From Minisyncoccia bacterium (GTDB lineage Bacteria; Patescibacteriota; Minisyncoccia; Phycocordibacterales; UBA9973), in the NCBI GenBank assembly GCA_049287045.1, contig JBAQFC010000001.1:67309-131308 (forward strand): a stretch of DNA of 64,000 bases, written 5' to 3'. Made by a program: the position numbers and the translations under genes. This document shows positions 20,254-58,000 of this stretch, one piece after another (position 1 is the first letter of the stretch; every line of letters starts with the position of its first letter). The notes beneath the pieces are model-generated. The model ran no database searches. It saw only the letters and a program-made list of their open reading frames with translations, and was not told where the DNA came from.

Positions 20254-20282
20254 AACACCCCAAATATTGGGGTGTTTTTTAT
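20254..20282 (+). terminator. Rho-independent terminator
   Basis: ACACCCC-AAATATT-GGGGTGT followed by TTTTTT. Confidence 0.7.
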
Positions 20283-20311
20283 TTGACAAAATAGCATAAA
20301 TATGCTAGTAT
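20283..20311 (+). promoter_or_regulatory. Sigma70-type promoter TTGACA-17-TAGTAT
   Basis: It lies directly after the terminator. Its extended sequence TTATTTGACAAAAT..CATAAA.AT..GCTA.TAT is nearly identical to the promoter at 61666. Confidence 0.5.
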
Positions 20312-20400
20312 CATAACGAATAAAGTTGTTTTAAAAAAAGTTTTGATTGGTTTCAAAAGTGCCTGTGGGGAATTTTTGAAACCAATTTAAACTAATAAAA

Positions 20401-22224
20401 ATGGAAACAATGGAAATAGTAAAAACAAAAGTTATCTCAATTAATGAGAACTCAGAAATTCTGATACCTTATGATTACCAAGAACCAGTAATTGAAAAAT
20501 TAATGGATTTTGTACAGGAAAATGAAAATAAACCATTCGCAACAGGATTCGTGGTTATGCCAGGAGGTTCTGGTAAAACTGTAATTTTTGCTCATTTGGT
20601 TAAAAGATTAAACCATCGTGTTATTATTGCTTCTCCGACTTTGACTATTTCAGATCAAAATCTTGAAACAATCAGACAAGTAAACCCTGGTCTTAAAATT
20701 AGTGTTTACTATGATGGTGAAAGGGATTTAACAGGTGATGTAATTTTTATTACATATCATTCTCTTATGAGAGTTTTGGCTAGCGAATCAATACCTCGTG
20801 ATTTTGCGAGATATGTTTTATTTGATGAGGCGCATAGAGCGCTTTCACCAGCTAGGTCTAAAATTATTGAAAAGCTGAATGCAGTATGTATTGGTTTTAC
20901 AGCGACTGATAAATTTTCTGAACAAAAAAATGTTGAGAAAAATTTCAAAAATGAAATCTACCGGATGTCTTTAAAAGAGGCTATTGAAATGGGAATTTTG
21001 CTGCCGCTTCGTGGGTATATTGTAGAAACTCAAATTAATTTGAGAGGAGTTCAGTTATCACACAGAAATCAACTTAATGAAAAAGCAGCAGAAAAATATT
21101 TAAACATTGCAGCTAGAAATCAGGTTGCTAGAGATTTTTATTTAAAAAATTTCAAAGGTATACCTGCTGTAGCTTTTTGTATAAGTATTAATCATGCGGT
21201 AGAGCTTGCAAAGTATTTTTCTTTATCTGGTATCAAAGCAGTGGCTGTTCATTCTAAAATCACTAAAGACAAAAGACGTGAAATCTTTTCTGAATATAGA
21301 AAAGGTAATATAGATGTTTTGTGTTCGTGTGATTTATTAATTGAAGGCTGGAATTCTAAGCGTGTTACAGTCGAACTCAATCTAAGACCTACTTATTCTT
21401 GGGTTTTGGCTGAACAAAGAGCTTGCAGAGTAATTAGACCTTTTATTGGGAAAGAAGCTGGAATCATCGTGGAGTTTCAAGATATCTATAGTAAAAAAGA
21501 TCAACATATTTTAGTTCATCATTTATTTGGAAATCGAGAGTATACCCAAGGTGGTTACATTGCTGCACCTAGTAAAATAATGCGAGCAGAAAGGCAAATG
21601 CTGGAAAATAATAATCCAGTTTATGTTTTTGATAACCTAAAAGTTTCTTCTATTGTCCGTGAGGTTGTAAATTTAAAACCAATTATCTCTGATAAAGCCT
21701 TCGGGAACAAAGAGTTGATTAAAGAAATTTTACTTTCTCGCGCAGATGTAAACTACAACGATTTGAAAGTTAGAGCTTTTATGGATCTCGAGTTCAATCA
21801 TTGGCTTTTCAAAGGTAAAGGGCAGTCTCTTATGAAAAAACATCTTGGAATGTTATGGCAAGGTTCTAAAGAAGATTATGAACTTTTTATGTATGACATT
21901 TTGGGTGTGCATCTCTTTAATGAAACTTTTTCTTTGCTTGGAGAAGATATAGAAAATGTGGCTGAAACTTTTGACCCATTAAAAACGAGTATGGACAAGG
22001 AAGTAATACGCAGGTTTGTTAATTTAATCTATAACGACAAAGAGAAACGTATAATTAAATTATACTTTGGTTTTGAATCTGTTAATGGTGAAGGAATGGA
22101 ATTAGAAGAAATAGGAGAAATACTTTCCTTAACAAGAGAAAGAGTGAGGCAAATTAAAGAAAGAGGTATAAGAAATCTTAGAAGATACTTTAAAGAACAT
22201 AAAGTTGGTATTGTTTCAATTTAA
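20401..22224 (+). CDS. SF2 DEAH-type helicase fused to a C-terminal sigma70 region-4-like HTH
   Basis: Helicase motifs I (GGSGKT), II (DEAH), III (TAT) and VI (QRACRVIR). The last 70 aa, ...GMELEEIGEILSLTRERVRQIKERGIRNLRRY, match sigma70 region 4.2. Confidence 0.7.
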   Translation: METMEIVKTKVISINENSEILIPYDYQEPVIEKLMDFVQENENKPFATGFVVMPGGSGKTVIFAHLVKRLNHRVIIASPTLTISDQNLETIRQVNPGLKISVYYDGERDLTGDVIFITYHSLMRVLASESIPRDFARYVLFDEAHRALSPARSKIIEKLNAVCIGFTATDKFSEQKNVEKNFKNEIYRMSLKEAIEMGILLPLRGYIVETQINLRGVQLSHRNQLNEKAAEKYLNIAARNQVARDFYLKNFKGIPAVAFCISINHAVELAKYFSLSGIKAVAVHSKITKDKRREIFSEYRKGNIDVLCSCDLLIEGWNSKRVTVELNLRPTYSWVLAEQRACRVIRPFIGKEAGIIVEFQDIYSKKDQHILVHHLFGNREYTQGGYIAAPSKIMRAERQMLENNNPVYVFDNLKVSSIVREVVNLKPIISDKAFGNKELIKEILLSRADVNYNDLKVRAFMDLEFNHWLFKGKGQSLMKKHLGMLWQGSKEDYELFMYDILGVHLFNETFSLLGEDIENVAETFDPLKTSMDKEVIRRFVNLIYNDKEKRIIKLYFGFESVNGEGMELEEIGEILSLTRERVRQIKERGIRNLRRYFKEHKVGIVSI

Positions 22225-22227
22225 TCA

Positions 22228-22262
22228 AACACCCGTTCTGTAATACAGAACGGGTGTTTTTA
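22228..22262 (+). terminator. Rho-independent terminator
   Basis: ACACCCGTTCTG-TAAT-ACAGAACGGGTGT followed by TTTTTAT. Confidence 0.75.
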
Positions 22263-22380
22263 TATTTCCTTTACTGCTTCTATCAGAACACTTTTTTCAC
22301 CATTATGCACAGAGACTTTGTCGGAGAAAGCTATGCATTTTTCTGGAACCAAAATATCTTTTGAGACTGCAAATATTTTT
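22260..22380 (-). pseudogene. Orphan duplicate of the dnaE 3' end (the last 39 codons and stop, about 90% identical to 24337-24456)
   Basis: A 120-bp segment aligns base-for-base with the real dnaE terminus 2076 bp downstream. It has no start codon and abuts the REP hairpin at 22381. Confidence 0.7.
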
Positions 22381-23155
22381 CTGCGTTAGGTCTTGCCTAA
22401 CGCAGAACTTTGTAATTTAGCCAATCAAAAATTTCTTTCATAAAATACTCCTTTTTTGGAAAATAATTTGGGAAAGATTTTATATCTATTATTTTATTCT
22501 GTGGTCTTTTCTTTTCAATAAAATCTAGATAACTTGAGTAACTATAATTACTTAAATATATTATAGATTCTATTTTATTTTTTATTTCTTTTTCTTTCCA
22601 GTCTTTATCTATCAATTTTATTGGATTTAAATGAATATATGAAAATAAGTATTTTAAATAATTATCATTGTCTGCATGCTCAGATTTAAACTTTCCTTCA
22701 AAAAGTCCACCAGTTCTTTTGTATTTATTATTGTAGTACATAGCATAAGCTGTGCTTAATTTTTGCATAAATTTACTTATTCCACCTTCAATTTTTTCTG
22801 TTATTAAAATATGAAAATGATTCGGCATTAGACAATATGCACCAATGGCAACTAAATTATTTATTCTTTCAATTTCATAAATATCAAAATCTTTATTTCT
22901 TTTAAGATCATATAAATTAAAATTTTGATCTGTATTTGATATGAAAAGTAAACTTATAAAATAATTATAATCTTGTTTGTCTTGGAATATTCTTTGTTTA
23001 CTATTACCACGATTATATATATGATAATATTCGCCTTCAACAAAATTTACTTTGCGTATAGACATACAATAAATTTATCATAATCACTCCGCATTAGGCA
23101 ATTTACGTTAGGCAAGACCTAACGCAGCATTACGAACAGAGACCTAACGCAGACT
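22381..23155 (-). mobile_element. IS200/IS605-type or RAYT-like element: a Y1 HUH transposase gene bounded by inverted REP-type hairpins
   Basis: The left end is CTGCGTTAGG-TCTTG-CCTAACGCAG (22381-22405). The right end is its reverse complement CGTTAGG-CAAGA-CCTAACGCAG (23106-23127), with partial extra copies at 23089-23101 and 23140-23155. Confidence 0.7.
22397..23065 (-). CDS. IS200-like/REP-associated tyrosine (Y1, HUH) transposase
   Basis: GEYYHIYNRGNSKQRIF...AYCLMPNHFHILI (HuH motif), with the catalytic Tyr region in the C-terminal half. Confidence 0.8.
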   Translation of the reverse strand: MSIRKVNFVEGEYYHIYNRGNSKQRIFQDKQDYNYFISLLFISNTDQNFNLYDLKRNKDFDIYEIERINNLVAIGAYCLMPNHFHILITEKIEGGISKFMQKLSTAYAMYYNNKYKRTGGLFEGKFKSEHADNDNYLKYLFSYIHLNPIKLIDKDWKEKEIKNKIESIIYLSNYSYSSYLDFIEKKRPQNKIIDIKSFPNYFPKKEYFMKEIFDWLNYKVLR

Positions 23156-23211
23156 TATTAAAATAAAAAGCCGTTGTAATTTTACAACGGCTTTCAAAAA
23201 AATAATTTTTA

Positions 23212-24240
23212 TTAACCCTTTTTGAATAAACCAATAATGTCTTCTTTAGAAAGCACCCCTCTTGAGGATGGATCAATAAGAATGATTTTACCGGCATTCA
23301 ATTTTTCCCAAGCAAATTCGGCAACCAATTCCGGATATATCTTTAATAAATCCGGAATCAATTTTTTAAACTTCGTTTCCAGTTCACTTGGAGAACTTGA
23401 TACCTGCTGTGTCTTAATAGTTTTATTTTTAGGTACGACAGCAGGTTTATTGGTTAAAATTTTATTTGTTTTATTAATTACATTACCCTGAGGATAAACA
23501 GAAAGAATTTTTATAGTTTTTACACCTTCTTCTTTCTGAGTTTCATAACCGGCATCTTTTAATCTTTTTAATGCTTTTTCACAATCAGTTTTTTTCTTGA
23601 GGGCTAAAGAAAAACTTTCAGGATTTTTTCTGAAAGTTTTTCTGTAGACTGTATTAATTATAGGCAAACCCTTCAGTACTTTTTTTCGTATGTTATCTAT
23701 TTCTTGCAACCTCTTTTGAAGTTCATCTTCTATAGAATCTTCGCTTAAAAATAAAAAAATACTTAAGCCTTTCTGAAAACAAAAAAAATTATTTTCGCGC
23801 AGCATGGAAACTACATTTTCAATATTTTCTGAAGTAGCAAATTCTGCTCGCGCCATCGACATTTGTTTTTGAGAAGAAAAAAGTGTTTTATATCCAAATT
23901 TCATCTCCCCGGTTGATTTAGGCATCTTAATATCATCAATAATGATACTGTTGGCTTTTTCAACCAAGATAGTGCCTTCCTTTCTTTCTTGTTCGCTTTC
24001 ATTAAGGTTTGGTAAAAGAATATGGAGATGTTTCTCGTTTTCTTTGCAAGAAAGTATTTCATTTCTCATAAGAATTTCCTCTGCTACTTCAGCAGAATCT
24101 TTTGAATCAAATTCCATAACTAAATAATTTGGAATGAATTCATTTGTTAGCACTTTTGCTATGATTTTTGAAAGCAGGTTTGCAATTTTTGAATAAAATT
24201 CTCTGTACCTCGTTGGTACAATTTTTATTGGGTTTTCCAT
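23212..24240 (-). CDS. Hypothetical protein lying inside the segment bounded by the duplicated dnaE ends
   Basis: 342 aa ORF with no recognisable domain. Confidence 0.45.
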   Translation of the reverse strand: MENPIKIVPTRYREFYSKIANLLSKIIAKVLTNEFIPNYLVMEFDSKDSAEVAEEILMRNEILSCKENEKHLHILLPNLNESEQERKEGTILVEKANSIIIDDIKMPKSTGEMKFGYKTLFSSQKQMSMARAEFATSENIENVVSMLRENNFFCFQKGLSIFLFLSEDSIEDELQKRLQEIDNIRKKVLKGLPIINTVYRKTFRKNPESFSLALKKKTDCEKALKRLKDAGYETQKEEGVKTIKILSVYPQGNVINKTNKILTNKPAVVPKNKTIKTQQVSSSPSELETKFKKLIPDLLKIYPELVAEFAWEKLNAGKIILIDPSSRGVLSKEDIIGLFKKG

Positions 24241-24335
24241 TAGCTTTGGGTTTTAAGGGTTTATAGATTTTTTAAAAAACTTTTTTATTAATCTATCATA
24301 CAATACAGACTATGTCAATAGTATGTATTGTAAAT

Positions 24336-27300
24336 TTATATTTCCTTTACCGCTTCAATCAGAACACTTTTTTCACCATTTCGTACAGATACTTTACCCG
24401 AGAATGCTATACATTTTTCTGGAACTAAAATATCTTTTGAGACTGCAAATATTTTTGGAAAAGCGACAGCTTCTATCGAACCGGTAAAATCTGAAATTTT
24501 AATGAAGGCCATCTGGTCATTTTTCTTGGTTGTGACAAGCCTAGAGATTTCGATGATTCCGGCAAGCGTAACAGTCATATCATTTCCAATTCTTTCTAAT
24601 ACTTTTTTAATATTCATATCACGACTTTCTATTTTTTCACGTAGTCTGTCGAGGGGGTGTCCGGAAACATATAACCCTAGAAGTTCTTTTTCCCAAAGTA
24701 ATTTTTCTGCTTGAGTTGCAGCAGGTGCTGGTTTTAGAGTGAGTGCTTGGAATTCTGTTACTGGTAATGTACCAAAAAGTGAAACCTGATTGGCTGCTTG
24801 TTTGGAGTTCTCACGGATATAAGCAAGCATATCTTCTAGGTTCGCTAGAAGTAAACCACGTTCTCCAAAGTCATCCATGCTACCTGTTTTTATTAAAGCT
24901 TCCATGGATTTTTTGTTTAAATTTTTACTTTTGACTCTATCTAGGAAATCAGTGATAGATTTGAATTTACCATTATTCTTTCTCTCTTCAATCAAAGCTT
25001 CTCCTATTTCGGCGCCAAAATTTTTTATTGTATAAAGTCCGAAGCGAATTGTTTTGTCGTCAATACGAGTAAAACCTTGGAAACTTTCATTTACATGTGG
25101 AGGCAAGACTTTGATTCCCATTTTTTCACATTCACGAGTAATCTCAGAAATTTTCTCTACATCTCCGGATTCAGCTGTGAGTACTGCACACATGTATTCG
25201 ACAGGGAAGTTGGCTTTCATATAAGCTGTTTGGTAAGCGACGCGTCCGTAACTCGCTGAGTGTGCTTTGTTGAAACCATACGCAGCAAAAGGTTCGATTT
25301 GTTTCCAAAGTTCTTGAGCTTTTTTGAGTGGCCATTTACTGTGTTCCACACAACCCGTGATGAAGTGGTCTTTTTGTTTTTCCATTTCCTCAGGAATTTT
25401 TTTACCGACAGCCTTTCTAAACTTGTCGGCTTCACCCCAACTATACCCGGCGATATGAATAGAAATAAGCAAGAGGTCATCTTGGTAAACAAGCACACCA
25501 TAAGTTTGTTTTAGGATTGGCTCGAGCATCGGGTCGAGATATTTTACGAGACTCGGATTATGTTTACGCTCGATATAGAGAGGAATGAATTGAATAGGTC
25601 CTGGACGATATAGAGCCACCATCGCATTGATATCGTGTATAGAAGTTGGTTTTAATTGTTTCAAATAAGCAGTCATACCACCACCGTTCAATTGGAAAAG
25701 TCCCATTGTCTCACCACGAGCTAGCATTTCAAAAGTTTTTTTATCAGCTACGTCTACATAATCAAGATCAACTTTTATGTTGTGAACTTTTTCTGTAATC
25801 TTCACCGCATCAGCAAGGATTGCTAGGTTTTTAATACCAAGAAAATCAAATTTTGGCAGACCGACATCTTCGATCTGATACATATCATACTGAGTAATTA
25901 TTTCTCCACCTTTAGGGTCGTATTGAATCGGTGTGAATTCATAAAGTGGTCGGGGAGCGATGACGATACCTGCAGCATGGACAGAGACGTGTCTAACACA
26001 GCCTTCCATTTTTTTTGCCAAATCAATAATTTCTTTTGTGATAGGTTCTTTTTTGTATGCTTCTTTCAGTTCCGGTACGAGCTTCATTGCGTTGTCTATT
26101 GTCATAGCAGTACCTTGAGAGCCGAGCGGAATTAAACTAGACAATCGATCACCAATAGCATACTCGTAGCCAAGTGCTCGAGCGACGTCACGCACGGAAC
26201 CTTTGGCCATCATTGTTCCAAATGTTCCTATCTGAGCAACACGGTCTTTACCATATTTTTCTTTTGTGTAGGCAATCATTTCTGCTCTACGATTGTCGGC
26301 GAAGTCCATATCAATATCGGGTAGAGAGGGACGCTCTGGGTTCAAGAATCTTTCGAAAGGGAGTTTGTATTCAAGTGGATCGACGTTGGTAATACCGAGC
26401 AAGTATGTCGTCAGAGATCCGGCGACAGATCCTCGAATATTTGTGAAGATATCATTCTCACGAGCGAAACGTAAAAGATCTCCCACAACTAAAAAGTAAG
26501 TAGGGTAACCTTTTTGTTTAATAATACCGAGCTCATATTCAAGTCTGTCCACATACTCTTTGTTCTGTGGTAATTTTCTAAATTCAAAACCTTTATATGC
26601 CAATTCTTTCAAGACTTCATTCGGATCTTTGTCGCCTTCGATTTTAAATTCAGGGAAGTATGCTTTACCCAATTCTATTTCATAATCTTCACACAAGTCA
26701 GATACGAGCATAGTGTTACCGACTGCATCAGGTACATCTTTAAAATATTCTTTTGCTGTTTTCTCATCAATAAAAGAAAAATCATCATCAGAGAATTCAA
26801 ATTTTCCTGTATCTTTTCCTTCAGCACCTGTATTTACCTGGAGCAGGGTATGGTGCGCTTTATGATCATCTTTACATGGGTAGTGTGAGTCTTGAGTAGC
26901 AACGATAGGTATATCGAATTTTTTTCCTAATTTTACTAGTTCATTACGAAGCTCTTGGTCTCTCTCTATGTGTGGGTGAGATTGTACTTCGATAAAATAA
27001 TTTTTACCAAAAATATCAACATGTTCTTTTATTATTGCTTCAGTTTTTTCAACATTTCCAGCAAGTATGGCACGAGAAAGTTTACCTCCCATACATCCTG
27101 AAAGACAAATGATTCCTTCACTGTATTTTTTTAATAGTTCTTCATCAACACGGGGCTTGTAATAATATCCTTCGAGGTTTGCAATCGTGACGATACGCAT
27201 CAAATTTTTATACCCCTGCAAATTTTTTGCGAGCAGTATTAGGTGATATCTTTTATTATCGATGCCTGCTTCCTTGTCAGTTAATTTTCTTTCTGCAACA

Positions 27301-40658: not shown

Positions 40659-40896
40659 GATGTTTTTATTATATCAAGTTTTATATTTTGATGCTATATA
40701 ATTTTTTTTGATTCTGCATTTTCCCCTGTCCCCGGTTTAGGGGATTTCCCCTAAACCGGGTATCGGGGAAAGTGTCAGAGATACTACAAGTTATCCACTA
40801 TTAGGTTTACTTATTTGTTTTTTAAAAAAACTTCTGATATAATTTAGGCATAAAGGTTTTAATAGATTATTAATTTTATTTAAAAGTATAAATTTT

Positions 40897-41622
40897 ATGA
40901 ATATGAATTTTGTGAAGAAAAATAAAAATCGTGGTTTCACTTTGCTTGAGCTCTTGATCGTTATCGCGATCATCGCTATTTTGTCTGTTGCACTTGTTCT
41001 AGTTTTGAACCCAGCAGAAACTTTAAAGAAGGCTCGAGATGCTCAGCGTATCTCTGACCTTGCTACACTTAAAACTGCGATAGGACTTTATTTGACGAGT
41101 GTCTCCCCAGCATACTTGGGTGGAGTGGCTGATAACAATTTCTGTAAACCTACTCCAGCAACTGCATGGGGCGACGGTTCGTTCACATACAAGATTTCTT
41201 ACTCGACTCCTATTGCCGTCCCAATCACTGATGCAGTCGAAGATGGTAGTACTGGTGTTATCAAAAGACAAGCAGCTGTGAATCCAAGTCTTACAGATGG
41301 TACTGGTTGGATTCCTGTTAAGTTTGATAACATTACAGGAGGATCTCCAATTTCAAACATTCCTCTTGATCCAACAAACAATATCGTAAGCACTTTGAGT
41401 ACTGCTGCTTCTGTAAGAAGTGATGCTCTAGTCTATCGTTATGCATGTGCAATAACTCCACTTACTTTTGAAATCGATGCTCAACTAGAAAGTGATGCTT
41501 ATACTGTTACTGACGACAAAAGAGCAAGTGATGGTGGAAATAGTACACTTTATTATGAAGTTGGTACAAGTCTATCAATCATGACTGCTGCTTCTCCTTC
41601 TGCAGTTGGAACAGATATCTAA
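40897..41622 (+). CDS. Type IV pilin, paralogue 1
   Basis: Prepilin leader KNRG|FTLLELLIVIAIIAILS, with Glu at +5. Confidence 0.8.
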   Translation: MNMNFVKKNKNRGFTLLELLIVIAIIAILSVALVLVLNPAETLKKARDAQRISDLATLKTAIGLYLTSVSPAYLGGVADNNFCKPTPATAWGDGSFTYKISYSTPIAVPITDAVEDGSTGVIKRQAAVNPSLTDGTGWIPVKFDNITGGSPISNIPLDPTNNIVSTLSTAASVRSDALVYRYACAITPLTFEIDAQLESDAYTVTDDKRASDGGNSTLYYEVGTSLSIMTAASPSAVGTDI

Positions 41623-41643
41623 TCATTTAGCTAATAAAATAAA

Positions 41644-41676
41644 AACACCTCGGTTTTACACTGAGGTGTTTTTATT
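41644..41676 (+). terminator. Rho-independent terminator
   Basis: ACACCTCGG..CTGAGGTGT followed by TTTTTATTTT. Confidence 0.7.
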
Positions 41677-41768
41677 TTATTAGATTTGTCTCAAAAATAC
41701 TTGCTTGTTTTTTTTATATTTAGTAAAATTATATAAGCTATTATTATTTTATAAAAAACTATATATTT

Positions 41769-42449
41769 ATGAATATGAATTTTGTGAAGAAAAATAAAAA
41801 TCGTGGTTTCACTTTGCTTGAGCTTTTGATCGTTATCGCGATCATCGCTATTTTGTCTGTCGCACTCGTTCTAGTTTTGAACCCTGCAGAAACTTTGAAG
41901 AAGGCCCGAGATGCTCAGCGTATTTCTGACCTTAATACAATCAAAACTGCAATCGGACTTTATATGACGACAGTAGCACCGGTGTATTTAGGAGGAACAT
42001 CCTCCAACGCCGAATGTCAGGCTGTGACAGGTACTTGGGCAGGTACAAACAAGATTTTTTATTCTCTTCCTGTTGCTAGTGTTATTACTGACGTGGTATT
42101 GGATGGTGTTGGTGGTGCTCTAAAATTGCAGGTTGCAACTCCAAGTCTTACAGACAGTACTGGTTGGATTCCTGTTGATTTCGGTAATATTGCCGGAGGT
42201 TCTCCTATCTCAAAAATTCCTGTTGATCCAATCAACACTATTACTGCTCTAGGTGCAGTTGCAAGTACAGATCTAGTATATCGTTATGGATGTGCTCAAT
42301 CCCCATTAGCTTTCGAGATTGATGCTCAATTAGAAAGTATCGCTTACACTGTTACTACTGATATGAGAGCGACTGATGGTGGTAATAATGCAGGTGTATA
42401 TGAAGATGGTACTGACTTGTTGATATTTGGAACAGGCGCAGACTTCTAA
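41769..42449 (+). CDS. Type IV pilin, paralogue 2
   Basis: The first 60 aa are nearly identical to paralogue 1, and the C-terminal globular part diverges. Confidence 0.8.
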   Translation: MNMNFVKKNKNRGFTLLELLIVIAIIAILSVALVLVLNPAETLKKARDAQRISDLNTIKTAIGLYMTTVAPVYLGGTSSNAECQAVTGTWAGTNKIFYSLPVASVITDVVLDGVGGALKLQVATPSLTDSTGWIPVDFGNIAGGSPISKIPVDPINTITALGAVASTDLVYRYGCAQSPLAFEIDAQLESIAYTVTTDMRATDGGNNAGVYEDGTDLLIFGTGADF

Positions 42450-49041: not shown

Positions 49042-52000
49042 ATGAAAAAAATTATAAAAAAAATAAATTTAAGTCGGTTTAATTTATTCTTGGTAGTTCT
49101 ACTTCTTGGAGTAGTTTCTTTTTCATTCGTGAAACTTGTTTTTGCATCCACTCCGGATACCACTAAACCGAATCCTGGACAAGCATGGAATGAGATCGGC
49201 AACGGAAGTTTTCAGATCAGCGGACCTACTGGTGGACCCACAGTTCCCAAAACTTTTATTTTTCCTGATGTTGATAATACTTATGTCATCACTGCACCGA
49301 CTCCGGTTGGAACAACAGGACAAGTTCTTACTTCCACAGGAGCTCTCGGTCAACAATCCTGGGCGACACCAACTTTCGGTAATGTCAATGGTACTGGTAC
49401 GACAAATTTTATAACCAAGTGGAACGATGCTGTCGGTACTTTAGTAAATTCTTTAATTTTTGATAATGGAACAAATGTCGGTATCGGAACAACAGCACCA
49501 GCTACACCTTTTCAAGTTGGACAAAGTGGTACAAATAAAAATTCAAGATTTTGGGGGAACATAGATGTAAATGGAGGAGGTTCATTAACTTTTGGATCTG
49601 GAGATTCTTCTATCGGATATCCTTCTGGTTATAATTTGGCTTTCAATACTTACAACGGAAGTCTGACCGAAAAAATGAGAATCACGTCCGTTGGTAATGT
49701 TGGTATTGGAACCACGAATCCATCAATGTCACTAGATGTAAAAGGTTCAGGTGCTGGACACGTTATAATGGGTAGTTGGGCTTCAAATGGAGCTTACGGA
49801 GTACTTAGTCTGAATGGTTTAAATGATACAGGTTCCAATTTTTATAGTGCAGCAGGAGGTCCTCTTTATATTAATCGTCCAACAGGACAAGGTCTATATT
49901 TTAGAGAAAATAATGCTGATCAAATGACCATTCTAAATGGTGGCAATGTTGGTATTGGAACAGTAACTCCAGGAGCAAAATTGGACGTAGAAAATCTTTC
50001 TGCTGGAATCAACGAAGGGATTCGATTATCTCATGCAAATGCTTATGATGCAGGATCCAAGATTTCTTGGTGGATGGATAATGCTTCAGAAAGTGCAAAT
50101 ATCAAAAGTGCATGGTATCCGACTCCTACATCGAAATCGTATATTGCACTCTCTACCTATGGCCCGTCATTACTTGAGAGAATGAGAATAAATGGTGATG
50201 GTAATGTCGGTATTGGATCAACAGCACCAAACGAAAAGCTGGATGTTAAATCCGGTAATATTTCTATTTCTGATTCTGCTGGAAACGAACGCGGAAGATT
50301 TTGGAGTACAGATACAGGTGGTTCACCTTATGAAACAGGATTACAAACAAGTAATTATCACCTTGTGTTAGATGCTTCCGGTTCTGGACAAAATAATATT
50401 ATTATGCGAACAGGTTCAAGTACTGTTGGTACTGGTACTGAAAAATTAAGAATTACAGGTGCAGGTCTTGTCGGTATTGGAACATCAGCTCCTGCACAGC
50501 TTCTTCAAGTTGGTAGTGCGACTTCAACAGCCAATCAGTATTCAAGAATTGATTCCGCGGCAGCATATGATGCAGGATTAGAACTCGCATCTGCTGGTGC
50601 ATCAAAATGGACTATTTACAGACCAGGAGGTACAAATGATTTGAGGTTTTATGATGCTACTGCTACTGCAGGAGATAGGCTAACTATAAAAGCAAGCACT
50701 GGTAACGTCGGCATAGGCACCACAGCACCCACTGCAAAATTAGAACTCGGAGGTACGTCAGGTGTAGACGGTTTGAAATTCCCTGACGGAACTCTTCAGG
50801 TTACCGGAGCTTCTAGTGGAGTCAAATTACTTTCGAGTGGTACTGGCCTGACAATCAACGGAAATTCTGTAACGAGAACTGCAGTTAATGCTTGGGATGC
50901 TGAAGTATATAGTCAAGACGGTTATTCTGGTGGAGCCTATGCGTCTTATGTAGTTCGCAATCTGACTGGTGTTTATTATATGGTTGGTTTGAATACAGAC
51001 CCGACTTTAAATCCTAGTTACACTAGTATAGATTATGCTTGGTATGTGCTCAATAGTACAAGTGCTTCGATTTATGAAAGTGGTACCAACATTGCTCCTG
51101 CAATCACTACTATCGCTGTAGGTGATGTGCTTGCTGTGACTTATGATGGATCAAATATCAGATATCTCCAAAACGGAGTCGTAAAAAGAACAGTGCCGGT
51201 CATTATAACTCTTCCTCTTTATTTAGATTCTTCTTTCCACAGTGGAGCTGCGACACCGGATATTAGCAATATTCAATTCGGACCTATGAGTACTGGTTCT
51301 CAATGGGCTGCAAACGGAACAAGTATTTATTACAACGGTGGTAATGTTGGAATTGGAGTTACTGCACCAAGCAATAAATTAGAAATCAGTGGAGGAGATC
51401 TTATGGTTAACGGAGCTGGAGCTTCAAAAAGCCTATACTTAAATTATGATAAGACTAGCTTTCCAAATTATGCGAGTTCATTAACTCAAACAGGTGCTGC
51501 TGATGTTTCAGGTACGCGTGGACTTGTAATAAATGCTAACAGTGGTCAAGCAGTAACAAATTATGGTATTGGTTTTGCGATTGATGGGGCTAATAAAATG
51601 TTCCTCCAAGGAAGTAGCGGCAATGTCGGTATTGGTACTACAGCACCAACATCTAAATTAGAGGTATCAGCTGGAAATATTCAAATGAGTGATGGGTATC
51701 CAGTAACTTGGGGTGATACAGTCACACCTAGAGGTCAAATAGTTACTTTTTCAGCTTCTCCTGATAGAGGCTTAAGATACACTGCACAACCAGGAGGTGT
51801 TGGATGGTTTGGAGTTCACGATTTTTATGCGGCTGACGGAGTTGCTGGAACTACACCTACATTGGCAATGAGAATAAAAGATGGCAAAGTCGGCATTGGA
51901 ACGTCGGCACCGGTTGGCAAACTTAATGTAGTCGCTGCTTCTTCTAATGTATCACAGTCTGGGCAAGCTATCGGTTTTGGAAGTACGGCAGTTCCATCTG

Positions 52001-55000
52001 GTGTAACAATGGGTTGGAATGATAATAATTACGGATGGCTCCAGTCATGGAGCAGTACGCCACTCTATGTTAATGCGTTAGGAAATGATGTCATATTCAA
52101 TAGAGATAGTGGCAAAGTCGGTATTGGAAACACTGCACCATCCGAAAAGCTCGATGTCACAGGCAATGTTGAATTCTCAGGTGCTTTGATGCCAAACAAT
52201 CTTCCAGGATCTTCTGGTCAATTTTTGACCTCTGGTGGTGCTGGAGTTGCTCCAACATGGATTGCTGGTGTGACAGGAAGTGGCACGACCAATTATGTTA
52301 CAAAATGGACACCAAACGGTACCACTCTTGGTAATTCTTTGATTTTTGATAATGGTACAAATGTCGGTATCGGTACAACAACACCAGGAGCACAACTAGA
52401 AGTAAAGGGAAACGGAACCGCCAAAATATTAATTGGAGATATGAGCTATTCTAATTATGCTGGAATTTCATTAACTGGATTAACAACTGCTGGGAATTAC
52501 ACGTTATTAACGAGAGCTGCGGACCCTGATTTGTATATCAACAGACCATCTGGTTATGCAATGCAGTTTTCAGAAGCAAACGGTGTTCCTCAGATGTTTA
52601 TTAAAACCGGTGGTAACGTCGGTATTGGAACAACAGTACCAACTCAAAAATTAACCGTGAATGGTGCGATTACTCAAGGAACCAACGGAGCTTCTTGGAC
52701 TTTAGATACTTCCGTCGTTGCAAACGATTGGACAATGATTGGTTCCTCTGACTCTGTTACTCAGAGATATTTACACTTTGGTTATAGAGCAGCTGATGCA
52801 ATAGGAGGTGCATACACTGATAGTGCAAAAATAAACTTCTACACAGGAGGAGCTATTCTTGGAATCAACGGTGGTAAAGTTGGTGTTGGTGTAGCATTAC
52901 CTACAGCCAAGTTCCAAGTCGGAACATCTTCTTCTTCTGCGGGTGTAGATGTGTCAGTTATAGGTTCATTTGGAGGTAGTGTTGTAGGATCAGCTTATCC
53001 TCTAACTGTTTCAAATACTGCTGCTATAACCGTAGGAAATAAAGCATTGATGACGTATGTCATGGGACCTGCTTGGTCTTCTACTGCTTATGCTGGTGCA
53101 TATCTTGAAAACGTAGATGCGTCTACCTCATATGTTATTGGAACTTATCGTCCTTCTGATTCTCTAGCAGAAAGAATGAGAGTCACATCCAATGGAAATG
53201 TCGGAATTGGAAATACAGCACCACTTAATAAACTTACCGTAACAGCTTCCACTATGCCTACTGGACAAGGTGCATTTTCTGCATCAAACACTTCAACTTC
53301 TGGAACTCAATATGGTCTTGCTGGTACAGCAACTGGTGCTAGTACGACAAATGTTGCTGGTTACTTTAGTGCCTCAGGTGCGACAAACAATTATGGTTTA
53401 ATTGTTAATAGTGGTCTTGTTGGTATTGGTACACAAACACCATCTTTTCCTTTGGAAATTGTCAAAGCTGCACCTCTTGGTACACAATTGGCTTTAACTC
53501 AATCTGCTGGAAATACAACAGGATTGTTGGCATGGACTGGTGGATCTTTTTATATACAAACAGGTTCGAAATATGATTCGTCTGCTGCTTGGGTTAGTAC
53601 CAACGGCACAACAGTCGGTAACCAAGGGTATTCTTATTTCGGTCAAGACGGGTCTGTTTCACTCGGTATGGTTTCTAGTGCTCTTACTGGTACTACTATT
53701 TCTTCATGGAGAACTTCTCCATTTCAGTTGACTGCTGCAGGCAATCTAGGTCTTGGTGGTATTACTCCAACAGTTGCACTTGAAGTTTTAGGTAGTACCA
53801 CAAACAGTTCTGTAAAAGTTCGTGGAATAGAAATACAAGGTTATGCAGTGAACAATGAATGGATAGGTGAAAATATTTATTATAGTGGAGGATGGAAATA
53901 TCGAGCTAACGGTTTTGGAAATCAGATATATTTCGGTGGTAGTGCTACCGGCGATATTTCATTTTACACTGCGCCAAATAATGTCGGTGGTGCAGGTGCA
54001 GCTGCTACTCTTACAAATCGTTTTACAATTACTCCTGGTGGCAGTATCGGTATAGGTACAACAAACCCAGGTGCAGCCCTAGAAGTAAATGGTCAAGTGA
54101 AAATCACCGGAGGTACTCCAGGTGCTGGCGAAGTTCTTACTTCAGATGCAGTTGGTTTAGCTACATGGGTTCTTCCCGTAGCATCAGTCACAGGTACAGG
54201 TACACAAAATTATGTAACTAAATGGAATAATGCAGGAGGTACTGCTATTGGTAACTCTTTGGTTTTTGATAATGGAACAAATGTTGGTATAGGTACAACA
54301 GCACCAGGATATAAATTAGATGTTTCAACAACTGGACCTGGTGGAATGCATGTTGCTACAAACACTTCTACTGCTGCTAATCCATCATTTTATTTGACAG
54401 ATGCAGCTGCGAGTTATTCTGATTTTGAAATTTATTCTGATGCTACTAATGTTAAATTAGGACCTTATCTTGATAAGGGTATTCAGTTTGTTGGTAATGC
54501 CGGAACTGAAACAAAAATGACAATTGATAGCTCAGGCAACGTAGGTATAGGCACAACAGCAGCAACACTACTAGATGTAAAAGGTGCTTCACCTATAATC
54601 CAGGTACAAGATAATGCCGCAGGTTATGCTATCACTCGTTACCGAGCTGGTGGTTCTGGAGTAAGTGATGCTTATTTTGGAGTTGATGCTGGAGTCGTGG
54701 GTTTGATTACTGGTGGCGGAGGAATTCCTTATGCTGCTGTTATCTCTCGTCAGGGCGCATACCCAGTGCAATTTGGAACAAACAACCTTGCTCGAATGAC
54801 GATAAGTAGTGCTGGACTTGTTGGTATTGGATTAACAAACCCAACAGCTCCTCTAGAAATAAACGATAGTACATGGACCACTGCTTCTGTCCGACCAACT
54901 GTTTTGAAACTAGGTTCTTATACTGATGCTGCAAACGAAGGTCCATTTATAGACTTCACTTCACGATGGACTGGTCTTTATCAGGATTGGGTTGTAGGAC

Positions 55001-58000
55001 GTATCGGTGGCGTCTATGATAATTCTGTTGCAAACGGTGGAGCATTAGTTTTCTATACAAACTACGGTGTTGGAGCAGCCAGTGCGACAGTGAAAGAACA
55101 AATGAGAATTAATCCACTCGGCAATGTTGGTATTGGTACATCATTACCTGATGTACTTGGTTTAGCAGCAGGTCATACTTCTCTTACCCTTGCAGGAGCT
55201 ACTGGTGATTTTTATGCAAATTTTGAGCTTCAAGGACACAGAGGTGTAGGAGGTAACCAGGTTGGTACAATATCTTTCTTTCAAGACACAACTAGAACCG
55301 CATTGATTAGTGTTAATAATGGAGTCTCTGCTTTAGATGAAAGTTCTATGACATTTTTTACTAAAACAACTGGTGTTGCAATGGGAGAAAGAATGAGAAT
55401 TGATAAAGCAGGCAACGTCGGTATTAGAAATACAGCACCATTAGAACTCTTATCTCTCGGAACAGCTGGAACAACAGCTGGTATATTGTCTTTTGCAGGA
55501 GCGACTTCCGGTAAAGCAATCCTTCAAGCAACAGCAGCAGCTGGCACTCCCACTCTCAATCTTCCAACCACATCTGGAACACTTGCTCTTACATCCGATG
55601 TACCAGGAACAATCTACGATTCTACATGGCAGAGAATAGTAAATCCTGGTGGAGCATATTATTCTTCAACCGGATCTTTGGGAACTGGTGCAATAGCCAT
55701 CAATCTTCCTGTCGGAATGGGAAACCAAATGATCAGTATGACCATAAAGGTTTATGAATACGCGACCAACGAGTCATTTGAAATTCATGCTGGAGGATAT
55801 ATGTACACCTCAGGTAATACCTGGGCAAATAATCCATTTGCTTATATCGTAGGAAATCCAGGAGTTGATAGAAGATTTACAGTAAGATTTGGTTATACAG
55901 CTGGAGGTAAAGCTGTTGTTTATATTGGTGAGACTGGATCCACATGGGCATATCCTCAGGTGGCAGTCACCGATGTCTTTGTTGGTTTCCAGGGTCAATC
56001 AGTTGCTCTTACTACTGGTTGGTCAGTTGGTTTTGCAACTGCTTTTGAAAACGTTACAGCTACTGTTACTAACACTCAGGTTGGTTATGCTCTTAGTACC
56101 AACACAGCCAATACCACTGTATTGCGAGATGCTTCAGGCAATTTCGCTGCTGGAGTTATAACTGCTAATTTAAGCGGTTATAAAAACATAGATAATGGTA
56201 ATGAGATAACCATTGCTAATGGTTTCGCTGGTGGTGCTTTATATTTGAACTATCGTGGTGCTTCTAGTGCAATTACTTCATTAAATATTATGAATGGTAT
56301 GTCAGGTGGCGTTTATGCAAATGTTCAGGCATTAGCTTTCGTAAAATCAGGAGGTACAGCTGCTCAGTTTTTAAAAGCAGACGGAAGTGTTGATTCAAAT
56401 GTGTACATGACTTCTGGTAGTCAATGGACAACTTCAGGAACAAATCTTTACGATTCTTTGGCAGGCAATGTTGGTATTGGATCAACAAACCCAGTTAATA
56501 AACTTGAGGTAGCATCTTCCACTATGCCTACTGGGCAAGGTATAATTACTGCGTCAAATACTTCAACAGCAGGAACTCAATATGGTATTGCTGGTACAGC
56601 AACTGGTGCTAGTACGACAAACGTTGCAGGCTACTTTAGCGCCTCGGGTGCTACAAATAATTATGGTTTGATTGTTAACGGTGGTCTTGTGGGTATAGGA
56701 ACACAAACACCAACTTATCCACTTTCAATCGTATCAAGCACAGCTGGTAAAGCTTATGGTGATTTAGAGATTCAAGATACGGGCACGGACGGTCCATATT
56801 TAACTTTCCATGACCCAGGTTCTATGGCATGGTCTATGGGAGTCACAAACAGTACACAAAATTTATCTATAAGACAAAATAATATAACTGGAACTGCAGC
56901 AATGACTATTCTAAATACGAGTGGCAACGTCGGTGTTGGTGTATCTCCATCAGAAAAGTTAGATGTTTATGGAAATGCTATATTTGGAAGTAACGCTGCA
57001 AACTCATATATTGGAATAAGAAGACCCGACGGTTCGGTTACCGCAACATTTAAAATAGCTACTGATACTGCAGGACTTTTAATTAAGCAAGGTGGTGGTG
57101 GTTCTTATATCGATTTTAGTACAAATGCCACAACAAACGCAGTTAGAATTATAGATAATGGCTACGTCGGTATCGGAACGACGGCGCCAACCAATAACCT
57201 GCATGTTCTAGGTGTCGGTCCTGGACACCTCATCCGTTCTGAAACTACCGCAGCGACTGGAGATGGTTACAGTGGTATTCAATTGACTGCAGGAAGCCGC
57301 TCAGGGTATTTGTTTGTTGCAAATCAAACTGGTACGAGTTATGGAGGTGACGGTGGCTTAAATATGTACAGTTCCAATGGTCCATTATTGTTCTGGCCAG
57401 GTGCTGTTGAGAAGATGAGGATTTTAGCAAACGGTAATGTCGGTATTGGAGTCACAGCTCCACCAGTTAAATTATCCGTCGGTGCGGTTACTTCAGGATA
57501 CGGAATGATTGGAGTAAAACAAACAAGTCCATTGAACTACAATGGTATCTGGGTTGAATCTTCAACAAATTCTAAATCTGTAACTATTGGTCATACTGGT
57601 GTTTATGGTTCAATTGGCACGAACTATGCTACTGGTGGTGATGCCCCTTATTCAAACTTAGTTCTTAATGAAGGTGGCGGCAACGTCGGTATTAGAAATA
57701 CAGCACCATTGGAACTCTTGTCTATTGGAACCTCTGGAACAACGGCTGGTGTATTATCCCTTGCCGGAGCAACATCCGGTAAAGCAATCATTAATGTTCT
57801 AGCAGCAGCTGGCACTCCCACCCTCACTCTTCCCACAACAACCGGAACTTTGGCTCTTTTGACTGATATGCCAGCTAATATATCTTTGGTTACTACAGGA
57901 GGTGCGACAGTAAATGGTAACGATGTAACAAATGGTGGAGCTGGATCTTGGACTAGTGATGTATATAGTAAAGATGGTTTTGTCGGTGGAGCATATGTAT

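Follow-up and report, generated by a model that had tools for sequence, protein, structure and literature searches.

Sigma factors are normally the only proteins in which sigma region 4 is encountered; it serves them in recognizing the -35 element and in holding on to the polymerase flap. The locus studied here raises the question of why such a domain should form the end of a helicase, and what the combined protein would do. The gene lies in a window of 64,000 nt, the whole stretch of DNA analyzed, from a Minisyncoccia bacterium (contig JBAQFC010000001.1, positions 67,309 to 131,308 of the forward strand). Positions 20401-22224 (+) constitute a single unbroken ORF, and the 607-aa product has an identical entry among NCBI proteins, derived from a Minisyncoccia MAG. 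Existing labels for this protein are "DEAD/DEAH box helicase" or "RNA polymerase sigma factor (sigma-70 family)". A preliminary description, made by reading the DNA, had proposed that an SF2 DEAH helicase and a true sigma70 region 4 (sigma4) are present in one protein. Pfam matches and motif positions confirmed this, and helicase motifs I, II, III and VI were all located in the N-terminal part, as described. The organization of the gene is as follows.

20401..22224, + strand: complete CDS, encoding an SF2 helicase, a middle domain, a linker and sigma70 region 4
20467..21030, + strand: RecA-like domain 1 (aa 23-210), from Pfam, alignment, predicted structure and motif search
20566-20580, + strand: motif I, GSGKT (aa 56-60), from motif search
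20824-20835, + strand: motif II, DEAH (aa 142-145), from motif search
20899-20907, + strand: motif III, TAT (aa 167-169), from motif search
21043..21495, + strand: RecA-like domain 2 (aa 215-365), with Helicase_C, from Pfam, alignment and predicted structure
21415-21441, + strand: motif VI, QRACRVIRP (aa 339-347), from motif search
21496..21936, + strand: family-specific middle domain (aa 366-512), mixed alpha/beta, modelled with high confidence
21937..21993, + strand: acidic disordered linker (aa 513-531, LGEDIENVAETFDPLKTSM), with 5 acidic residues and 1 basic residue
21994..22200, + strand: sigma70 region 4 (aa 532-600), four helices
22039-22074, + strand: region 4.1, KEKRIIKLYFGF
22132-22185, + strand: region 4.2 recognition helix, TRERVRQIKERGIRNLRR (aa 578-595)

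Four Pfam families were matched above their gathering scores: ResIII (aa 23-169, E 2.7e-24), Helicase_C (aa 251-346, E 1e-12), DEAD (E 5e-11) and Sigma70_r4 (aa 545-594, E 2.1e-13, 50 bits vs a gathering score of 24.1). SWI2_SNF2 (PF18766) also exceeded its threshold (31.9 vs 26.7), on the generic core. Residues G58, K59, T60, D142, E143, H145 and T167-A168-T169 are invariant in an alignment of 23 sequences, and this invariance of the catalytic motifs indicates that the motor is under selection. The TAT sequence of motif III is as in ResIII-type DNA translocases. Comparison with solved structures gave RadD (7r7j, E 1.3e-18), SauUSI and XPB (E about 1e-13 to 1e-15) as the best matches of the whole core, and a match to phrog_16, "DNA helicase", was obtained with an E value of 4e-53. 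The protein shares with RadD (YejH) and XPB two RecA-like domains carrying motifs I, II (DExH), III (TAT) and VI, and with RadD it also shares its status as a stand-alone chromosomal gene. Identity in the structural alignments to RadD/XPB is only 17-20%, however. The best curated NCBIfam family is RadD (NF053632), with a score far under the cut-off (56.8 bits vs 720, E 1.3e-15) and a profile covering only the core, aa 25-360; the XPB family (NF045503) scored 30.7 bits vs a cut-off of 610, a likeness at the fold level only.

Neither RadD nor XPB contains a counterpart of the middle domain or of the sigma4 C-terminus. In addition, the window protein, unlike RadD, shows no cluster of cysteines for zinc binding following RecA2: aa 366-425, which correspond to the position of the zinc-binding element in RadD, are free of cysteine. 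The middle domain gave no Pfam match and no PDB sequence match. It is partly present in a few relatives that lack sigma4 (profile matches reach positions about 450-535), and F376, Q383, G384, A389, E397, I443, F460 and L477 are family-invariant. Every family-invariant residue of the alignment in fact belongs to the motor or the middle domain, and not one column of the sigma4 part is invariant.

This distribution bears on one reading of the protein, which we consider unlikely, namely that it is a general RadD-like helicase for repair, recombination or replication restart. The HTH would then be a non-specific handle for duplex DNA or a protein-interaction module, playing the accessory part of a winged-helix or HRDC-type domain, with no link to promoters or transcription. 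The structural neighbors of the motor, RadD and XPB, are repair proteins, and the confinement of invariant residues to the motor and middle domain while sigma4 drifts agrees with such a role. So does the existence of a much larger sister family that lacks sigma4, consists likewise of stand-alone chromosomal genes and ends in different C-terminal domains, some of them HTHs of other types (PF13518, PF13551). Membership of RadD itself fails, by the score and by the missing cysteines given above.

The C-terminal approximately 70 residues were identified as sigma70 region 4 in the window protein, and Sigma70_r4 was likewise found in 17/17 homologues. When a profile was compared with PDB sequences, SigA/RpoD was matched with an E value of 4e-24, in an alignment that spans regions 4.1 and 4.2 together with the region 3.2 linker and, in relatives, also includes the LRHPSRSKxL tail. 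The recognition helix (TRERVRQI) is identical to that of SigA/RpoD at the -35-contacting positions. Judged by its sequence, region 4 derives from a primary (group 1, SigA/RpoD-type) sigma factor. The preceding linker aligns weakly with the primary-sigma linker between regions 3.2 and 4.1, the SigA profile alignments starting at LGDFIED. In the predicted structure, aa 514-531 have pLDDT values below 50 and lie between two confidently folded parts, a geometry that suggests a tether.

In spite of one of its labels, the protein is not a sigma factor, as the preliminary description had stated. Neither Sigma70_r2 (at E values up to 1) nor Sigma70_r3 was matched by Pfam in the window protein, nor were they in 17 homologous C-terminal halves. 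TIGR02937 remained below its cut-off (40.4 vs 42.9) and covered only profile positions 90-164. A hidden region 2 or 3 in aa 366-530 was considered and rejected: 17 members gave no Pfam match, there was no PDB match before the linker, and aa 366-512 are predicted to adopt a mixed alpha/beta fold, unlike the helical bundle of sigma2. Because regions 2 and 3 are missing, the protein cannot serve as a sigma factor. It differs from SigA/RpoD in that region 4 is attached to an ATPase, and since regions 1.1, 2 and 3 are all absent it can neither engage the beta-prime coiled coil, nor recognize a -10 element, nor bring about promoter opening. The possibility that the C-terminus is instead a LuxR/GerE-type HTH (PF00196) was likewise rejected: GerE was found in only 1/17 members (E 0.25), vs Sigma70_r4 in 17/17, with E values down to 2e-16.

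Sigma4-like HTHs do occur outside sigma factors, and WhiA (3hyi) and UPF0122/YlxM (1xsv) were among the fold matches. WhiA is a DNA binder, and by analogy it may offer a precedent for a protein outside the sigma factors in which a sigma4-like HTH does nothing more than bind DNA. The HTHs of WhiA, YlxM and LuxR/GerE are only similar in fold, however, whereas here we deal with a derivative of a primary sigma factor at the sequence level (E 4e-24), and the partner domain is an ATP-driven motor.

The residues expected to read the -35 element were then compared across the 19 members of the bacterial clade, using position numbers of an E. coli sigma70 sequence that was cross-checked only against a segment of B. 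subtilis SigA. The window protein is intact in this respect, in agreement with the preliminary description, all six predicted reading residues (TRERxRQ) being kept. In the clade as a whole, R586 was present in 16/19 members, Q589 in 15/19, T583 and R588 each in 13/19, E585 in 12/19 and R584 in 9/19, while conservation at the presumed neutral surface positions 578, 579, 581, 591 and 592 was 0-4/19. The putative -35-reading residues of the bacterial clade are, by this comparison, conserved far above neutral surface positions. This is unexpected if the domain were a non-specific handle, as the general-helicase reading has it. On the other hand, base-reading residues have been lost in about one third of the bacterial members and in the archaeal clade described below, including all archaeal members, an observation that favors that same reading. 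Because these residues are lost in many members, the family as a whole cannot have -35-type specificity as its function.

The explanation that we tentatively favor, and to which we assign a little short of an even chance, is that of a RadD/XPB-like DNA translocase tethered by its sigma-derived HTH to -35-like duplex DNA. The starting point would be a stand-alone chromosomal SF2 DNA-dependent ATPase, whose motor would be a ResIII-type, RadD/XPB-like translocase or helicase; we infer that DNA is its substrate. The gene of this motor would have picked up the C-terminal part of a primary sigma factor, consisting of the post-region-3.2 linker, region 4.1 and region 4.2, and the HTH, on a flexible acidic linker of about 18 residues, would act as a tether to duplex DNA. 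For the window protein, since all -35-reading residues (T-R-E-R-x-R-Q) are intact, the preferred sites are expected to be TTGACA-like hexamers, that is, promoter regions. That this protein has lost the C-terminal tail, which makes no contact with DNA, but no reading residue agrees with selection on DNA reading. Once tethered, the ATP-driven motor would work on the adjacent DNA by translocation or unwinding; its tasks may include removing bound proteins or stalled RNA polymerase, or resolving structures at points where repair, replication and transcription come together. Two features of the alignment would count against a tether: sigma4 has no invariant column, and three members have an insertion of about 50 aa between regions 4.1 and 4.2. 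Isolated sigma4 binds -35 DNA only weakly, so the tether might need a second contact.

How old and how general is the fusion? About 25 homologues from independent assemblies, with identities of 37-57%, are collinear with the window protein. A frameshift or an assembly artefact joining two genes is thereby ruled out, and the fusion stands. The architecture had been called uncommon, and it is indeed rare: about 12-15 clusters at 50% identity were found among 1.84 billion representative proteins. A full-text literature search for a helicase plus sigma4 architecture, or for sigma4 in archaea/DPANN, gave nothing relevant. The tree contains two deep sister clades, one bacterial (Patescibacteria) and one from Micrarchaeota, and the fusion is kept in both; the members of the archaeal clade sit in genuinely archaeal Micrarchaeota chromosomes. 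On the evidence of the alignment and tree, the fusion is old and maintained. As the two clades are sisters and not nested, the direction of transfer between domains follows only from the bacterial origin of sigma4.

The archaeal clade is central to weighing what we see as the main rival, which we judge rather unlikely. In this rival the protein is an RNA-polymerase-docked motor, with the SF2 motor placed at the upstream face of the enzyme and competing with SigA for core; its task would be to bring polymerase that is stalled or past termination back into use, or to link repair with transcription, in a RapA/Mfd-like manner. The beta-flap docking and the anti-sigma-like activity mentioned in the preliminary description were both drawn from the parent domain only. 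Docking would agree with the start of the captured piece in the post-region-3.2 linker, and with the retention, in this primary-type region 4, of the hydrophobic positions as well as region 4.1; most relatives also keep the HPSRSxxLxxF tail, which has no DNA contacts (L607 in 16/19, an aromatic residue at 610 in 17/19). One homologue is encoded directly upstream of nusA. There is also a precedent in RapA (HepA), an SF2 ATPase (Swi2/Snf2) that binds core and not holoenzyme, at a site of core RNA polymerase overlapping that of sigma, and that touches the beta flap-tip helix (PMC8501970). The flap-tip surface concerned is the one that a sigma4 module would use, and RapA would be a functional analogue if docking is right. 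Homology to RapA was not detected beyond the generic SF2 core, however, no SNF2_N or RapA-specific family being present among the Pfam/NCBIfam matches of the window protein, and the flap contacts of RapA are made by its ATPase lobes and N-terminal domain and not by a sigma-like domain.

Several observations argue against docking. Sigma owes its affinity for core mainly to region 2, a region that this protein lacks. The hydrophobic and tail residues are needed for folding of the domain as well; for this reason, and because one archaeal member keeps a perfect KLRHPSRSKRL tail, conservation of the tail does not discriminate between a tether and docking. The window protein itself differs from SigA/RpoD in having lost the tail, as the archaeal clade does in having lost the base-reading residues. 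Archaea have no sigma factors, and the Micrarchaeota have no sigma cycle. The flap-tip helix is moreover reported to be commonly absent in archaea (PMC8321222). The presence of a deep sister clade in Micrarchaeota chromosomes therefore weakens obligatory docking on the flap of a bacterial RNA polymerase as the function of the family. A DNA-tethered motor, having no need for bacterial RNA polymerase, fits the archaeal clade.

The gene borders contain the following signals.

20254..20276, + strand: terminator-like hairpin, 10-bp stem and T-run, which closes the upstream unit and separates the helicase gene from the upstream genes
20283..20311, + strand: promoter-like site TTGACA-17-TAGTAT with a TG before the -10, 90 nt before the ATG
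20339..20393, + strand: long near-perfect hairpin/palindrome, presumably part of the 5' UTR, its last base 8 nt ahead of the ATG
22227..22259, + strand: strong intrinsic-terminator-like hairpin, 15-bp stem with 7 GC pairs and a T-rich tail, 3 nt past the stop codon

The gene had been credited with a strong promoter and a terminator of its own. The terminator, with its 15-bp stem, was borne out, and the gene is self-contained between two terminators; the downstream one was once probably bidirectional and shared with the convergent dnaE. The promoter match (10/12 positions plus TG) is not above chance in this AT-rich DNA, since 12 promoter-like sites were found in the region vs 11.7 expected from shuffled sequence; the candidate promoter is supported by its position and not by statistics. 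TTGAC(A/T) is present upstream at homologous loci too. The 99-nt stretch 20312-20410 has an MFE of -26.8 kcal/mol (z -4.65; 0/200 shuffles as stable) and holds also a small separate 5' hairpin, the centroid with the long hairpin alone being -24.9. A known RNA element was sought in the 5' UTR hairpin and rejected, as no Rfam family matched and the sequence is not conserved upstream of homologues.

The gene had further been placed next to a transposon-bounded insert. An insert of 2,076 bp with an IS200-like Y1 transposase gene does adjoin it, but its borders are formed by a 122-nt direct repeat, in which the 3' end of dnaE is duplicated, and not by transposons. The adjacency appears incidental: prior to arrival of the insert, the gene and dnaE were immediate neighbors, with their 3' ends facing each other. 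The neighbors in the window are pth, a hypothetical gene, the Y1 transposase gene and dnaE. A conserved operon partner was not found, no neighbor being shared across the ten loci read, all of which have a housekeeping context. DNA polymerase and repair genes occur nearby at several loci (dnaE, polA plus fpg, PolD-DP1, Pif1, RNase HII), as does NusA, and a proteasome-aCPSF1 adjacency is limited to two related archaeal contigs. The polymerase and repair neighbors would favor the general helicase, but as neighborhoods are not conserved they carry little weight. The neighborhood gives no consistent functional hint, which also counts against the DNA-tethered motor.

These results likewise bear on a set of other roles that we regard as very improbable: a motor-independent sigma competitor or anti-sigma-like repressor that covers -35 elements or else the flap, a protein serving phage defense or a mobile element, or an artefactual fusion of two genes. 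The transposase-bearing insert next to the gene could hint at mobility, and two matches at defense. MzaA (NF041931), a member of the sigma-70 family linked to the MZA anti-phage system, is, like the window protein, a long protein ending in sigma70 region 4, and its C-terminal 65-70 residues match (NCBIfam E 3.5e-10, 39.4 bits vs a cut-off of 800, aa 529-595 only; PADLOC E 8.7e-8); the helicase core matches models of type IV restriction enzymes and PbeA. These defense-model matches concern the generic core or sigma4 alone, however, far under curated cut-offs. Only the sigma4 end resembles MzaA, and no Mza partner genes are nearby. With respect to type I/III/IV restriction enzymes, there was no Pfam nuclease domain and no adjacent restriction-modification genes, and PADLOC matched the motor only. 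Conserved partner genes are lacking, and the invariant catalytic motifs argue against a role independent of the motor, as the collinear independent assemblies do against an artefact. A phage or mobile origin was rejected, since 50,697 phage records contained no full-length match, the core alone being matched at 23-28% identity, and since the relatives that lack sigma4 are chromosomal as well.

A bolder proposal, which we consider unlikely, is that sigma4 takes an ATP-driven motor of XPB/RapA-like type to promoters, or to RNA polymerase as such; the ultra-small Patescibacteria, and through transfer the Micrarchaeota as well, would then possess an ATP-dependent remodeller. Such a device may clear or recycle polymerase at -35 elements, or may pump DNA to open promoters as XPB does for eukaryotic Pol II, and it would be an ATP-dependent promoter/polymerase remodeller without a described counterpart. 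What we have at hand is the region 4 of a housekeeping sigma factor joined to a DNA motor and kept through deep divergence in two genome-reduced, largely uncultured lineages, and the present annotation, which is misleading, could be corrected. If the module serves as a DNA handle only, the family would be a clean case of re-use of a transcription-factor domain and of gene flow between Patescibacteria and DPANN. If it reads -35-like DNA or grips polymerase, it would be a compact ATP-driven promoter device, which might replace RapA, Mfd or HelD-type factors in minimal genomes.

The helicase-sigma4 gene (20401-22224, + strand) is a single unbroken ORF encoding a protein of 607 aa, and the helicase motifs were found where the preliminary description had placed them. 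An NCBI 'DEAD/DEAH box helicase family protein' (Minisyncoccia, Patescibacteria MAG) has 100% the same sequence; in their source annotations, members of the fusion family are called either DEAD/DEAH helicase or sigma-70 family sigma factor. The parts of the protein, including those of an AlphaFold2 model built from the family alignment (mean pLDDT 80), are as follows.

Features of the window protein (aa positions)
23-169, ResIII (Pfam, E 2.7e-24)
23-365, two RecA-like domains (AlphaFold2 model)
56-60, helicase motif GSGKT
142-145, helicase motif DEAH
167-169, helicase motif TAT
251-346, Helicase_C (Pfam, E 1e-12)
339-347, helicase motif QRACRVIRP
366-512, confidently modeled middle domain, mixed alpha/beta (AlphaFold2 model, pLDDT mostly 85-92)
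514-531, disordered acidic linker (pLDDT <50; five acidic residues and one basic)
526-600, four-helix domain (AlphaFold2 model)
545-594, Sigma70_r4 (Pfam, E 2.1e-13; 50 bits against a gathering score of 24.1)
578-595, region 4.2 helix TRERVRQIKERGIRNLRR

When 5.8 billion protein clusters were searched, ∼25 full-length relatives (37-57% identity) came up, all from independent assemblies; they have the ResIII, Helicase_C and Sigma70_r4 composition in common and are collinear across all parts of the family alignment. This excludes a sequencing or assembly artefact, including the hidden frameshift joining two genes that the preliminary description had raised. Taken jointly, readings of the protein as an artefact, a defence factor or solely an anti-sigma factor are very unlikely, and an equally small share of probability is reserved for explanations beyond those named here. 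The architecture is indeed uncommon: when 1.84 billion representatives (about 15 billion proteins clustered at 50% identity) were searched exhaustively with HMMER, no more than about 12-15 clusters covered the profile from end to end, each with at least 535 bits. Scores then fall sharply to 373 bits, and under this gap lies a large family of sigma4-less helicases (3,605 with E of 1e-30 or lower), most of which match only profile positions 5-360. A few of these share the middle domain, but their C-termini differ; the two that were checked are stand-alone chromosomal genes amid housekeeping genes. Phage records contained no carrier of the full architecture, and a full-text literature search found no published description of it. 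The invariant residues of the family all reside in the motor (Walker A, DExH, TAT and motif VI) and the middle domain, and the family alignment has no invariant column in the sigma4 part.

The window gene is surrounded by bacterial housekeeping genes (fmt, def, hisS, lepB, pth, dnaE and rsmE). No conserved partner gene was found across the ten loci read, where neighbors include dnaE (window), polA with fpg, Pif1, nusA, ftsZ and PolD-DP1; the helicase-sigma4 gene is a stand-alone gene.

Features flanking the window gene
20254-20276, terminator-like hairpin, upstream flank
20283-20311, promoter-like TTGACA-17-TAGTAT with TG, upstream
22227-22259, terminator-like hairpin, downstream flank
22379-22407, hairpin with 13-bp stem, overlapping the transposase stop codon
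22397-23065, - strand, IS200-like Y1 transposase/RAYT-type gene, in the insert
23212-24240, - strand, 342-aa gene without Pfam match, in the insert

The gene had been credited with its own promoter and terminator. Terminator-like hairpins are present, but the promoter-like match, although sensibly positioned, is statistically not above background. The presumed 5′ UTR contains a long, almost perfect hairpin (20339-20393) ending 8 nt before the ATG, with an MFE of -26.8 kcal/mol over the 99-nt stretch 20312-20410 (z -4.65). Lacking a T-run, this hairpin is no terminator, and it matched no Rfam family. At homologous locus L002 a strong palindrome, unrelated in sequence, lies just 3′ of a TTGACT hexamer. 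Downstream, a 122-nt direct repeat (22259-22380 and 24335-24456, 90% identical) flanks a 2,076-bp insert (22381-24334). The genuine 3′ end of dnaE is the right copy; the left one is its duplicate, a pseudo-3′ end that can still be read up to its stop on the - strand. Prior to the insertion, dnaE and the helicase gene would have been convergent with a common terminator at 22227-22259. Elsewhere in the window, neighboring genes 40897-41622 and 41769-42449 (region 40894-42241) are 83-89% identical over segments of 231 nt and 102 nt, indicating a recent tandem duplication. A giant ORF of 4,186 aa with several internal repeat families (49042-61602) and the following 640-aa ORF (61753-63675), where a 147-nt unit occurs six times in tandem (61945-62826), likely encode large repetitive surface proteins of a type common in Patescibacteria.

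A profile of 17 C-terminal halves matched primary sigma region 4 in the PDB (SigA/RpoD of B. subtilis, S. aureus and E. coli; E 4e-24 to 1e-21), and RpoS more weakly (E about 1e-15). The alignment with primary sigma runs from the linker after region 3.2 to the extreme C-terminus, and many relatives retain the hallmark tail LRHPSRSKxLxxF. Sigma70_r4 was detected in 17/17 members, against a GerE-type HTH in one (E 0.25); ECF-type r4_2 matched seven weakly. Neither region 2 nor region 3 was detectable with Pfam in the window protein or the 17 halves, and the window protein scored below the cut-off of the general sigma-70 model TIGR02937. Together these results bear out the earlier view of a genuine sigma70 region 4 within a protein other than a sigma factor; by its sequence, the domain derives from a primary sigma factor.

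The protein is clearly an SF2 ResIII-type superfamily member, with its motor core in phrog_16 'DNA helicase', a broad phage and cellular group (E 4e-53). RadD was the best solved-structure match to the whole model (7r7j, E 1.3e-18), with SauUSI and XPB next. It was also the top curated family, at 56.8 bits far short of its cut-off of 720. Membership tests placed the protein outside RadD, XPB, sigma factors, MzaA, RapA and restriction enzymes. That it is a RadD-like repair or recombination helicase, with the HTH a mere non-specific handle, is unlikely.

Region 4 of the family was aligned to the B. subtilis SigA segment, with numbering after the E. coli sigma70 C-terminus, and conservation was counted among 19 bacterial-clade members. 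Positions that contact -35 bases in sigma4/-35 structures were kept in 16 (R586), 15 (Q589), 13 (T583), 13 (R588), 12 (E585) and 9 (R584) members, versus 0-4 for each of the presumed neutral surface positions 578, 579, 581, 591 and 592. All six are intact in the window protein; they are replaced in the archaeal clade and about a third of bacterial members. Three bacterial members (P0002, P0005 and P0007) carry an ∼50-residue insertion, predicted from sequence to be helical and charged, between regions 4.1 and 4.2 (family alignment columns about 665-715), a turn that points away from DNA in sigma factors. We put forward, at slightly less than an even chance, the reading that agrees with most of the evidence: an HTH of sigma origin would bind duplex DNA and hold a DNA motor there on a flexible linker. 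In the window protein and most bacterial relatives this HTH would prefer -35-like TTGACA sites, and in other members its specificity may be altered or relaxed.

A pattern scan of one genome per species (185,579 species) found bacterial carriers among Saccharibacteria, Minisyncoccia and Parcubacteria/Patescibacteria MAGs, and archaeal carriers in two 'Candidatus Micrarchaeota archaeon' MAGs, one with two copies. Several archaeal proteins exceeded the Pfam threshold for Sigma70_r4 (31-35 bits). Archaeal fusion genes adjoin proteasome subunit and aCPSF1 genes, or lie near those for the PolD small subunit, aIF5B and an Lrp/AsnC regulator, which rules out a binning error. At L015 (6032-12847) and L016 (6487-12275) the helicase-sigma4 gene is immediately 3′ of the proteasome subunit and aCPSF1 (KH plus beta-CASP) genes, the latter encoding what is described as an archaeal termination factor. 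This arrangement is absent from the other Micrarchaeota loci, L010-L012, and kinship of the two genomes alone may account for it. MAG MFD03804.bin.2.25 has two paralogues on separate contigs (L011 5884-8253 and L012 5833-8217): in one, Sigma70_r4 exceeds the threshold; in the other, sigma4 was not detected and ResIII matches only in part. In a neighbor-joining tree of the motor and middle domain the bacterial and archaeal clades are deep sisters. The tree does not give the direction of transfer; given that region 4 comes from a primary sigma factor of bacteria, we infer that the fusion was born in bacteria and passed early to Micrarchaeota.

Alternatively, the motor might dock on RNA polymerase through sigma4, which we consider doubtful. 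Region 2, the main core-binding determinant of sigma, is missing, and this weakens docking. Hydrophobic positions and the tail are also conserved in the bacterial clade (L607 16/19), the tail being lost in the window protein; they are required for the fold, not just for gripping the flap-tip helix. Because the tail is perfect (KLRHPSRSKRL) in one archaeal member, tail conservation does not separate docking from DNA tethering. A precedent for docking is RapA, an SF2 ATPase acting at a polymerase site that overlaps sigma's and activated via the flap-tip helix (PMC8501970). The long-lived archaeal clade further weakens the docking reading, because archaea reportedly often lack the flap-tip helix (PMC8321222).

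The unusual points of the family are the primary-sigma origin of its accessory domain, the retention of -35-reading residues and the distribution over Patescibacteria and DPANN. In its overall build the fusion belongs to a known type, that of SF2 motors equipped with accessory nucleic-acid-binding domains.
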